4,656 nucleotides of DNA from a virus (lineage: Duplodnaviria > Heunggongvirae > Uroviricota > Caudoviricetes). The stretch is from positions 1-4,656 of the IMG/VR virus record IMGVR_UViG_3300029104_000146, one strand, 5' to 3'. Each line of letters begins with the position of its first letter. Position 1 is the first letter of the stretch. The translations under genes were made by a program, and so were the position numbers. Below the pieces are notes generated by a model. The model was not told the origin of the DNA. It worked only from the letters and a program-made list of their open reading frames with translations, and made no database searches. Of this stretch, positions 2,696-4,656 are shown one piece after another.

Positions 2696-2965
2696 ATGAG
2701 CGAACAGTACCTGATTACGCTCGACGAGTGGAAACCTAAGCGGTTCAGTCTCCCAATAACAAACACTACCCTGGTGAAATACGGAAAACTTGGATACATC
2801 GTTCCAAGACCACAAAAAATTCGTGGGCGTTGGCTGATAGATCGCCGAGCAGTATTTGTTGGACCTGGTGAAACAGGAATTGCGCCGGAAATTCATACTG
2901 GCGATGATGATGCACTGAAGGAGATTTTAACTCATGTCACCGAGGCCACGAAAAAACAGCACTGA
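2696..2965 (+). CDS. xis: Excisionase (Xis-like winged-helix recombination directionality factor)
   Basis: 89-aa product MSEQYLITLDEWKPKRFSLPITNTTLVKYGKLGYIVPRPQKIRGRWLIDRRAVF... parallels lambda Xis (YLTLQEW ... RRWVRE ... REYLFHESAV). Lies immediately upstream of int and overlaps its start by 32 nt, as in lambda. Start chosen at ATG 2696 because of the GGAG SD; ATG 2690 and GTG 2687 are in-frame alternatives. Confidence 0.7.
   Translation: MSEQYLITLDEWKPKRFSLPITNTTLVKYGKLGYIVPRPQKIRGRWLIDRRAVFVGPGETGIAPEIHTGDDDALKEILTHVTEATKKQH
2918..2923 (+). promoter_or_regulatory. Shine-Dalgarno (AAGGAG) for int
   Basis: AAGGAG lies 10 nt upstream of the ATG at 2934, inside the xis coding sequence. Confidence 0.5.
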
Positions 2966-4052
2966 CATAGCCGGACTTTACGAAAAATTTGATCGCAGAA
3001 CTGGCAGAGTTTACTACCAGTATAAAAACCCTGTGACTGGAAAATTTCACGGGCTCGGAACAGACAAAGGTAAGGCAGAAAAAATCGCTTCCACAGCCAA
3101 TCAGCGAATAGCTGCAGCAGAGGCTGAATATTTCATGCGCAAAATTGATGAAAGTCCGTCAGCAACAAAGCGTCGGGGTATCAGATTAAAGGCATGGGTT
3201 GATCGATATCTGAAAATACAGGACACGCGACTGAAAAATGGAGATATTGCAGCTACAACCCACAAAGAAAAAGTGCGAATGGCTGCATACCTGGTTTCCC
3301 GCCTGGGAAACCACCCATTGAAAGAACTGGAGGTAAGAGACTTTGCATTAATACTGGACGAGTGGATGGATAAAGACATGGTCAGCACAGCAAGAGTAAA
3401 TCGCGGATTATGGGTTGATATTTATAAAGAAGCACAGCATGCAGGGGAAGTTCCTCCTGGATGGAATCCTCCGGAGGCTACCCGTAAACCGATCCCTAAA
3501 GTGACCAGATCCAGACTCACCCTGGAAGACTGGCAAAAAATTTACAACGCAACGCCTGAAAAACACTTTATCCGTAACGCAATGCTTCTTGCGATTGTTA
3601 CTGGTCAGCGCCGTGATGACATTTGCCACATGCGTTTTTCAGATGTGTGGAACGAACACTTGCATATCACCCAGGGAAAAACCGGAATGCGTCTGGCGTT
3701 ACCGCTTACACTACGCTGTGATGCCATTGGGATAACGTTAAAAGAAGTTATTGATGGGTGCCGAGACAGAATATTAAGTCCATATCTAATCCATAGTCGG
3801 CACCAGAAACAACCAAAGCCGATGAGTAAAGACAACCTGAGCGACTACTTTGCCAAAGCACGGGATCTGGCTGGGATAACTCCACCAGCAGGAAAAACTC
3901 CGCCAACATTTCATGAACAACGCTCTCTATCAGAACGGCTGTACCGTGCACAGGGTATCGATACAAAAACATTACTAGGACATAAAGTCCAGGCAACCAC
4001 CGATCGCTATAACGATACTCGAGGTCAGGAATGGGTTAAGTTGGTTATTTGA
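2934..4052 (+). CDS. int: Lambda-family tyrosine recombinase (phage integrase)
   Basis: 372-aa ORF. N-terminal arm-binding-like segment (YYQYKNPVTGKFHGLGTDK, cf. lambda Int YYCYRDPRTGKEFGLGRDR). Catalytic signature residues in the lambda order: R226 (VTGQRRDD), K249 (QGKTG), H327/R330 (TFHEQRSLS), H350 (LLGHK), Y359 (TDRYNDTRGQEW, cf. lambda SQYRDDRGREW). Confidence 0.93.
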   Translation: MSPRPRKNSTDIAGLYEKFDRRTGRVYYQYKNPVTGKFHGLGTDKGKAEKIASTANQRIAAAEAEYFMRKIDESPSATKRRGIRLKAWVDRYLKIQDTRLKNGDIAATTHKEKVRMAAYLVSRLGNHPLKELEVRDFALILDEWMDKDMVSTARVNRGLWVDIYKEAQHAGEVPPGWNPPEATRKPIPKVTRSRLTLEDWQKIYNATPEKHFIRNAMLLAIVTGQRRDDICHMRFSDVWNEHLHITQGKTGMRLALPLTLRCDAIGITLKEVIDGCRDRILSPYLIHSRHQKQPKPMSKDNLSDYFAKARDLAGITPPAGKTPPTFHEQRSLSERLYRAQGIDTKTLLGHKVQATTDRYNDTRGQEWVKLVI

Positions 4053-4115
4053 CAAACACCATATGGAATATCCGTCACCATCTCAGGAAAAAAGTGTTGT
4101 AAAATGCGTGGCCTA

Positions 4116-4153
4116 GTTTTGGGGAAACGTTTTGGAGAGATTTTGGAGAAAGG
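4116..4153 (+). repeat. Three tandem direct repeats TTTTGG(G/A)GA at about one helical turn spacing; candidate arm-type (P') integrase binding sites
   Basis: TTTTGGGGAAACG (4117-4129), TTTTGGAGAGA (4130-4140), TTTTGGAGAAAGG (4141-4153), with unit starts 13 and 11 bp apart. They sit 65-100 bp downstream of the int stop, where lambda has P'1-P'3. Assignment as Int arm sites is an inference. Confidence 0.4.
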
Positions 4154-4205
4154 AAAAAATTGAATAAATTCAAAATCCTGAAAGTGTCCCGCCTTATGAA
4201 TAAGA

Positions 4206-4211
4206 AGGTGG
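4206..4211 (+). promoter_or_regulatory. Shine-Dalgarno (AGGTGG) for potC
   Basis: AGGTGG lies 7 nt upstream of the potC ATG at 4219. Confidence 0.55.
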
Positions 4212-4218
4212 AACTCGA

Positions 4219-4656
4219 ATGATCGGTCGACTGCTTCGCGGCGGTTTTATGACCGCTATCTACGCGTACCTGTATATCCCAATCATTATTTTGATTGTGA
4301 ACTCCTTTAACAGCTCGCGCTTTGGCATCAACTGGCAGGGTTTTACCACCAAATGGTATAGCCTGCTGATGAACAACGACAGCCTGTTACAGGCAGCACA
4401 GCATTCACTAACAATGGCGGTGTTTTCGGCGACGTTTGCTACGCTTATCGGTTCACTGACGGCAGTTGCGCTGTACCGTTATCGCTTTCGCGGTAAGCCG
4501 TTCGTTAGCGGAATGCTGTTTGTGGTGATGATGTCGCCAGATATTGTGATGGCGATTTCTCTGCTGGTGCTGTTTATGCTGCTGGGTATTCAGCTTGGCT
4601 TCTGGTCGCTGCTGTTCTCGCATATCACCTTCTGCCTGCCGTTTGTGGTGGTGACG
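4219..4656 (+). CDS. potC: Spermidine/putrescine ABC transporter permease PotC (5' portion, 146 codons; continues beyond the window)
   Basis: Translation MIGRLLRGGFMTAIYAYLYIPIIILIVNSFNSSRFGINWQGFTTKWYSLLMNNDSLLQAAQHSLTMAVFSATFATLIGSLTAVALYRYRFRGKPFVSGMLFVVMMSPDIVMAISLLVLFMLLGIQLGFWSLLFSHITFCLPFVVVT matches my recollection of E. coli PotC essentially residue for residue. Hydrophobic membrane-spanning character and a good SD support it. No stop before the window end. Confidence 0.85.
   Translation, partial: MIGRLLRGGFMTAIYAYLYIPIIILIVNSFNSSRFGINWQGFTTKWYSLLMNNDSLLQAAQHSLTMAVFSATFATLIGSLTAVALYRYRFRGKPFVSGMLFVVMMSPDIVMAISLLVLFMLLGIQLGFWSLLFSHITFCLPFVVVT

Follow-up and report, generated by a model that had tools for sequence, protein, structure and literature searches.

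The 4,656-nucleotide stretch of viral DNA analysed here (the window) contains, at positions 4053-4222, the junction on the int side of a lambdoid prophage that has integrated into potB, within the final codons of the gene; its layout is BOP', equivalent to that of lambda attL. The best explanation of this segment, which we consider very likely, is a lambdoid junction in potB whose core lies at 4197-4210 and whose three tandem TTTTGGRGA repeats are Int arm sites corresponding to P'1-P'3 of lambda. The repeats are phage DNA, as is everything to the left of 4197, and they are lacking from empty sites.

The junction in potB and its common core

Positions 4053-4656 of the window are 100% identical to E. 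coli O27:H7 B4103-1, where the window corresponds to the int-side terminus of a lambdoid prophage, degraded and ~28.6 kb long, that separates potB from potC. The whole prophage, along with 20 kb of host flank, makes up a locus of 49.9 kb (L004). At empty potB-potC sites, found in ~70% of 5,426 complete E. coli genomes, the match to the window starts at 4197, and alignment with K-12 gives unbroken identity from 4197 (TGAATAAG...) onward, with unrelated potB coding sequence before that position. At the other prophage end in B4103-1, potB runs through to ...TGAATAAGAAGGTG, beyond which the sequence is that of the phage; here the empty sites match no further than L004 position 20382, the end of the core. 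Given these empty-site match limits from both sides, along with a three-way alignment, the common core is the 14 bp TGAATAAGAAGGTG at 4197-4210 (no strand assigned), identical in attL, attR, attB and attP; its second copy lies at L004 20369-20382, and it is also present in K-12 potB. Strand exchange must occur within 4197-4210. The phage-derived, int-proximal att arm (4053-4196, + strand), the equivalent of the lambda P' arm, is absent from empty sites and contiguous with the other phage arm in the IMG/VR contigs L028 and L026; host DNA begins at 4211.

The initial annotation had called this segment an attachment junction and had placed the crossover core within 4180-4222, to be found again as a direct repeat at the other prophage end. 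The real core falls inside that interval, the junction is borne out by the empty sites, and the duplication maps to the 3' end of potB rather than elsewhere, such as inside potC. The core was also said to overlap the potB stop and the potC start, and in this respect the annotation requires correction, as the core ends 9 bp short of both. The last eight codons and stop of the original potB (4197-4222, + strand) are identical to the K-12 potB 3' end and survive as an orphaned 26-nt remnant, with its stop at 4220-4222, that is no longer joined to potB because the prophage separates them. The C-terminus of PotB in the lysogen reads ...NKKVSELDD, as compared with the original ...NKKVELE. The ATG of potC is at 4219-4221, and the 5' part of this host gene (4219-4656, + strand) runs off the window. 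Insertion took place in potB, within the last codons at its 3' end, and not in potC.

Two further features of the junction may be mentioned. The last phage base, together with the core, opens a mini-ORF of eight codons at 4196-4222 (ATG AAT AAG AAG GTG GAA CTC GAA TGA), the stop of which overlaps the potC start like the native potB stop, and for which there is no obvious Shine-Dalgarno sequence. This mini-ORF is probably accidental, because CTG replaces the ATG in the Citrobacter, Pantoea and L111 arms. Additionally, when 4181-4198 is read in the potB frame, the phage arm gives ...LKVSRLM and the host ...WRASRLL, the two differing chiefly at positions of the synonymous type; the arms of Citrobacter and Pantoea retain SRL(L/M). 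This likeness could represent a relic of potB from another host, or a core-type Int site common to attP and attB.

The fine structure of the core suggests where within it the strands would be exchanged. In attP, CCCGCCTTA-TGAATAA-GAAGGTGAG (with GAAGGTGGA on the host side) forms imperfect inverted repeats that agree at 6/9 positions across a 7-bp spacer. The candidate core-type Int half-site C, CCCGCCTTA, is located at 4188-4196 (+ strand) and the candidate core-type half-site B' of the host side, GAAGGTGGA, at 4204-4212 (+ strand); the reverse complement of the latter, TCCACCTTC, fits the half-site consensus. Owing to this half-site symmetry, the likely 7-bp overlap is TGAATAA at 4197-4203, between CCCGCCTTA and GAAGGTGRG. 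A variant attP in L028 carries TCCACCTTA, with an inverted-repeat match of 7/9, and TACACCTTC stands beside a different 7-mer in a further group of phages that share the arm motif; on these grounds, YNCRCCTTM is proposed as the core-type half-site, along with TGAATAA as the overlap. Excision would restore an attB junction reading ...CTGAATAAGAAGGTGGAACTC....

One IMG/VR contig, L065, was considered as a secondary-site insertion that would fix the overlap. There (4940-5744), the same arm and TGAATAA are followed by unrelated, tail-fibre-like DNA (TCAGGTGATCC...), and int is frameshifted and split into two ORFs. Because of the tail-fibre-like downstream DNA and the frameshifted int, the contig may reflect a deletion, and it was set aside; its junction may represent an Int-mediated event at a pseudo-site or such a deletion, and in the former case the crossover would be pinned to 4197-4203.

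The integrase, its candidate arm sites and the whole attP

The genes preceding the junction are those of a phage integration module. The integrase gene int (2934-4052, + strand; stop at 4050-4052) encodes a heterobivalent tyrosine integrase of 372 aa, with an Arm-DNA-bind_1 domain (PF09003, E=3e-21) at residues 1-64 and a Phage_integrase domain (PF00589, E=4e-19) at residues 194-363, the same two Pfam domains as in lambda Int. By its sequence, Int is a homologue of phage 21 Int, though not a close one (44.5% identity over the full length); it is 38% identical to HK022 Int and ~31-36% identical to lambda Int in global alignment. As in lambda, xis lies upstream of int and overlaps it, here by 32 nt: the excisionase gene (2696-2965, + strand; 89 aa) has a match to Exc (PF07825, E=7e-5), the lambda-type excisionase family, and is annotated as an excisionase in NZ_CP024245.1. 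Further upstream, an ORF of 846 aa (94-2634) encodes a RecE-like exonuclease ("exonuclease VIII"), composed of a RecE N-terminal region (PF06630) and a C-terminal Rv2179c-like 3'-5' exoribonuclease domain (PF16473, E=3e-66); a match to the classical RecE nuclease domain was not reported by Pfam for this ORF.

The spacer between int and potC measures 166 bp and holds TTTTGGRGA at 4117-4125, 4130-4138 and 4141-4149, all on the + strand, and neither strand of the window contains a further copy. Three copies stand against 0.14 expected, and none of 200 dinucleotide shuffles reached three, so that the repeats listed in the initial annotation at 4117, 4130 and 4141 are real and beyond chance. Across the 49.9 kb of L004, there are only four exact copies, namely the three on the int side and one in the other att arm, where at least one copy arose in 176 of 20000 shuffles. 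The core-distal repeat (TTTTGGGGA, 4117-4125, + strand) is a candidate arm-type Int site comparable to P'3, and its last four positions vary in close relatives (GGGGA, GGCGG, GGTGA), a variability resembling that of the weakest lambda site. The middle, P'2-like candidate (4130-4138, + strand) and the core-proximal, P'1-like candidate (4141-4149, + strand) both read TTTTGGAGA and are invariant in the Citrobacter and Pantoea arms. Such conservation among close arms is only weakly discriminating, because in the three close arms the entire stretch from the repeats to the core is ~85% conserved. Upstream of the first repeat, a block GTTGTAAAATGCGTGGCC (4095-4113) shows almost no variation among the arms of Citrobacter, Pantoea, L028, L026 and L111, two of which nevertheless carry an insertion of 19-33 nt separating it from the array.

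Around the array, the other elements proposed initially fared less well. Two copies of AGGAAAAAA-TG had been described as flanking the repeats; both are present (AGGAAAAAANTG at 4085-4096 and 4151-4162, with 0.01 expected), but they do not form a conserved pair, and AGGAAAAAAKTG was accordingly rejected as a flanking site pair despite being statistically unusual. The first AGGAAAAAAGTG copy (4085-4096, + strand) is loosely kept in Citrobacter and Pantoea and absent from phage 21, Klebsiella and other relatives, and is probably just an A-tract; this distal AGGAAAAAA copy is only partly kept even in close relatives. The 8-bp palindrome CCATATGG noted after the int stop is likewise present, at 4059-4066, but it occurs at chance level (at least one copy in 21 of 200 shuffles) and a deletion removes this stretch from the Citrobacter and Pantoea arms; it was dismissed as a feature.

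The proximal AGGAAAAAA copy is simply the A-tract of a candidate IHF element. This candidate H'-like site (4154-4180, + strand) consists of an A6 tract at 4154-4159, 8 nt, and ATTCAAAATCCTG at 4168-4180, and takes in the second AGGAAAAAATTG copy and the TTGAATAAATTCAA palindrome. Although ATTCAAAATCCTG is a weak match, with two mismatches to the IHF consensus WATCAANNNNTTR, the Citrobacter and Pantoea arms keep TCAA and CTG and vary at the four N positions (AATC, TACT, GGCT), and a kept consensus with varying N positions is the pattern expected of an IHF site. Its centre is situated 29.5 bp from the core centre, whereas H' of lambda lies at 39, and its orientation is opposite to that of lambda H'.

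The complete attP was reconstructed by fusing the arm in the window with the phage DNA of the opposite junction, and this arm-core-arm sequence was found uninterrupted in the IMG/VR contigs L028 and L026. Two near-identical phage records that had been considered as sources of an intact attP proved to be prophage cut-outs with host flanks. Measured from the core centre, the motif centres are found at -83, -70 and -59 on the int side, and at +127 (exact) and +141 (TTTTCGAGA, one mismatch) in the distal arm, and all five copies are co-oriented. Also in the distal arm, AATCAATCAATTG at +108 fits the IHF consensus WATCAANNNNTTR perfectly, and a second site at +39 departs from it at one position. 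Between these elements (+45 to +75; L004 20422-20450), a T/G-rich GTTTGTTTTTGAGTGGTTTTGCCG is followed by a hairpin, GCCGTTTAAGGTAACGGC, a stretch which by its position is a candidate Xis or Fis region.

In lambda, measured in the same way, P'1-P'3 lie at +59, +69 and +80, P2 at -106 (inverted) and P1 at -137. The int-side centres of the two phages are therefore nearly superimposable (59, 70 and 83 bp here versus 59, 69 and 80 bp), and the analogy to P'1-P'3 drawn in the initial annotation holds quantitatively. Both phages have three tandem arm sites between the core and the int 3' end, and a short common core (14 bp here, 15 bp in lambda); the distal arm, with its sites 127-141 bp out beside an IHF consensus, is similar without being identical. 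The two systems differ in the arm motif itself, which is TTTTGGRGA here and C/AAGTCACTAT in lambda, and in the arrangement of the distal sites, which here are adjacent and direct, such that all five copies share one orientation, whereas P2 of lambda is inverted; no inverted P2 equivalent at ~105 bp was found in the reconstructed attP. Furthermore, attB here falls within coding sequence, at the 3' end of potB, in place of the gal-bio spacer used by lambda, and 65 nt separate the int stop from the array, whereas the two abut in lambda.

The three TTTTGGRGA repeats are very probably the arm sites gripped by the integrase of this phage. Homology with lambda Int suggests that the N-terminal domains of Int would hold the arm sites, and that its C-terminal domains would reach the core across an IHF bend at the A-tract/ATTCAA element (4154-4180), with two further arm-site copies and an IHF consensus provided by the other arm, which lies beyond the window where the prophage borders potB. 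The resulting intasome would integrate attP into potB, and with Xis the same machinery would excise the prophage. It is from this analogy that we infer the binding of Int and IHF, the exact cleavage positions and the respective roles of the sites in integration and excision.

The array in related phages and other readings of the repeats

A TTTTGnnnn triple with spacings of 13 and 11-12 bp (13/11 in the window), placed on the int coding strand, follows int in nine of the ten relatives read. Such arrays are carried by phage 21, Lambda_ev203, Klebsiella ST13-OXA48phi12.4 and Providencia PSTCR8lys, by two Citrobacter lysogens and one Pantoea lysogen at potB, and by Citrobacter pasteurii; Klebsiella Kp4865-4 has a triple array of TTTTGATAA, and the e14-type PPompW phages one of TTTTGCAGAG, at the same spacing. 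The sole exception was vB_EcoM-689R6 (L014), in which an array was not seen after int. The Ints of these relatives are only 43-76% identical, and their integration sites differ. In all array-bearing relatives but one, the array comes directly after the int stop. The one that departs from this, Citrobacter meridianamericanus (L009 2620-3530; Int 76%), has ~820 nt extra between the int stop and the array, which is otherwise intact and followed by potC.

The association with int was also recovered when int was not consulted. A scan of IMG/VR viral contigs with the DNA pattern alone returned 120 arrays, and in 114 of these an Int homologue (35-100% identical) lies upstream in the same orientation, no more than 1.5 kb away. 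Nearly all of the 114 Ints end 11-68 nt before the array and two are 934 nt away, while three of the six exceptions had too little upstream sequence. Because Int lies upstream and the pattern-found arrays have 43 distinct downstream contexts, the array belongs to the int module and to no host locus. A scan of genome contigs for Int yielded 5 loci, too few for a footprint.

These data bear on what the repeats might otherwise be. The reading that survives best, though we judge it unlikely, is that the tandem repeats bind Xis or some other accessory bending protein instead of Int. Lambda Xis binds head-to-tail direct repeats with ~10-13 bp spacing; the 13/11-bp spacing of the direct repeats here gives them a form like that of a Xis filament site, and a lambda-type Xis is encoded just upstream. 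However, the sites of lambda Xis are confined to one arm, near the core, whereas the motif here is present in both arms, in a 3+2 arrangement at lambda arm-site distances. The array moreover tracks int across many att sites, and the T/G-rich GTTTGTTTTTGAGTGGTTTTG of the other arm (+45 to +75) is better placed for Xis.

Less probable still is a role for the repeats as RNA, either as an int 3'-UTR element acting in sib-like retroregulation or termination, or as a potC leader. Lambda has a retroregulator beyond att, and the repeats do belong to the 3' untranslated region of int, in the same orientation as potC. Nevertheless, the predicted fold of 4040-4230 is no better than those of shuffled sequences (z = -0.45), Rfam gives only a noise match inside int, no terminator-like hairpin was found on the + strand between int and potC, and the motif recurs in the other arm, which in the prophage is off that transcript. 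A host origin, as chromosomal DNA or as a pot-operon regulatory element (for example a promoter or operator for potC), is excluded by the empty sites: the repeats are AT-rich and directly upstream of potC, but empty loci have potB coding sequence at this position and contain no copy of TTTTGGRGA, even when one mismatch is tolerated. A search of the + strand between int and potC revealed no sigma-70-like promoter, and the array follows int also at icd, at ompW, adjacent to dcp and in ~43 other contexts. Chance repetition in a functionless, low-complexity spacer, conceivable for a short T/G-rich motif in an AT-rich region of this size, is excluded by the shuffles and by the persistence of the array with its 13/11 spacing down to ~40% Int identity and in other genera.

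With the repeats read as Int arm sites, phage 21 provides an informative comparison. Three copies of TTTTGGGGAA, spaced 13/12, follow its int stop directly, its distal-arm pair TTTTGGGGAAAGATTTTCTCTA is of the same kind as that found here, and in both phages the 3' end of the target gene is replaced by phage DNA. The distal pair, composed of a consensus and a degenerate site, reads TTTTGGGGAAAGATTTTCTCTA in phage 21, TTTTGGGGAAGATATTTTCCAAC in the distant relative L054 and TTTTGGAGAAAGATTTTTCGAGA in this phage, and the 3+2 design is thus repeated in L054. The target gene and core differ (icd in phage 21, potB here), and only ~5 codons are replaced here in contrast to 165 bp there; for this reason, the int-side array is situated ~55 bp from the crossover here and ~220-260 bp from it in phage 21, as read from the sequence. 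As integration occurs at the potB 3' end, the phage therefore combines arm sites of the phage 21 type with a different att specificity; the e14-type phages differ from it in using TTTTGCAGAG. Wang et al. reportedly set the limits of phage 21 attP, in 1997, at the outermost "repeated dodecamers", and Schneider is said to have proposed these dodecamers as arm sites. For the arm motif itself, a text search of the literature returned nothing.

How the variable half of the motif relates to the protein was approached through the Int N-terminal domain. Among phages sharing the motif, conservation in this domain does not exceed that of the remaining protein (48% versus 45% for phage 21, and 40% versus 45% identity for the Klebsiella ST13 Int), so that no simple protein-site link emerges. 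In the N-domain alignment, GGRGA-type arm sites accompany YW/YQYK in the second beta-strand region, and GATAA or GCAGAG sites accompany YWRYK/R; the few cases available give a hint of covariation in Q versus R within the conserved YW(Q/R)YK strand. The N-domain of Kp4865-4 is shared by vB_EcoM-689R6, in which no array was seen after int. We tentatively suggest, as a possibility rather than an expectation, that the variable 3' half (GGRGA, GATAA, GCAGAG) of a family-wide 13/11 TTTTG-N4 array sets the pairing of Int N-domain and prophage. If such a simple recognition code were true, it would predict cross-excision and cross-integration of co-resident prophages in STEC and other E. coli, and the triple array would be usable as a DNA-only marker for attP and int ends.

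Occurrence at potB/potC and significance

The int-side phage arm is found beside potC in 1,624 of 5,426 complete E. coli genomes, and the same distal arm (L004 20383-20600) beside potB in only 915 of them; therefore, many lysogens have a different or rearranged potB-side end. Some lysogens match only 32 nt past the core, at ~93% identity. The "potC" locus is listed among the sites where phages insert in O157:H7 and LEE-negative STEC (PMC8065619, PMC10925052, PMC11052207), and in excerpts of these three papers the core and arm sites are not defined. The prophages assigned to "potC" in STEC and O157:H7 occupy the same locus as the one described here, where the actual insertion is in the last potB codons, 9 bp upstream of potC.

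Insertion at this site cuts potCD off from potAB and its promoter, and int is co-directional with potC, with neither a terminator-like nor a sigma-70-like site found between the two. Expression of potCD may be dependent on read-through from phage transcripts. The ribosome-binding region of potC (AAGAAGGTGGAA) is preserved, because it lies within the core and the host part of the junction.

The feature is a classical lambda-type attachment junction with arm sites of the phage 21 type. Since the mechanism is that of classical lambda, the junction will not surprise a specialist; it is an ordinary feature of such phages and is useful for annotation. Its value lies in the exact att anatomy (core, arm sites and likely IHF sites) that it gives for a potB/potC prophage family, present in ~30% of complete E. 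coli genomes including O157:H7, that was previously named only by its locus. This anatomy corrects the annotated insertion site from potC to the potB 3' end, and can be applied to the calling of prophage boundaries, to attP/attB excision PCR and to the prediction of Int cross-reactivity among compound prophages.
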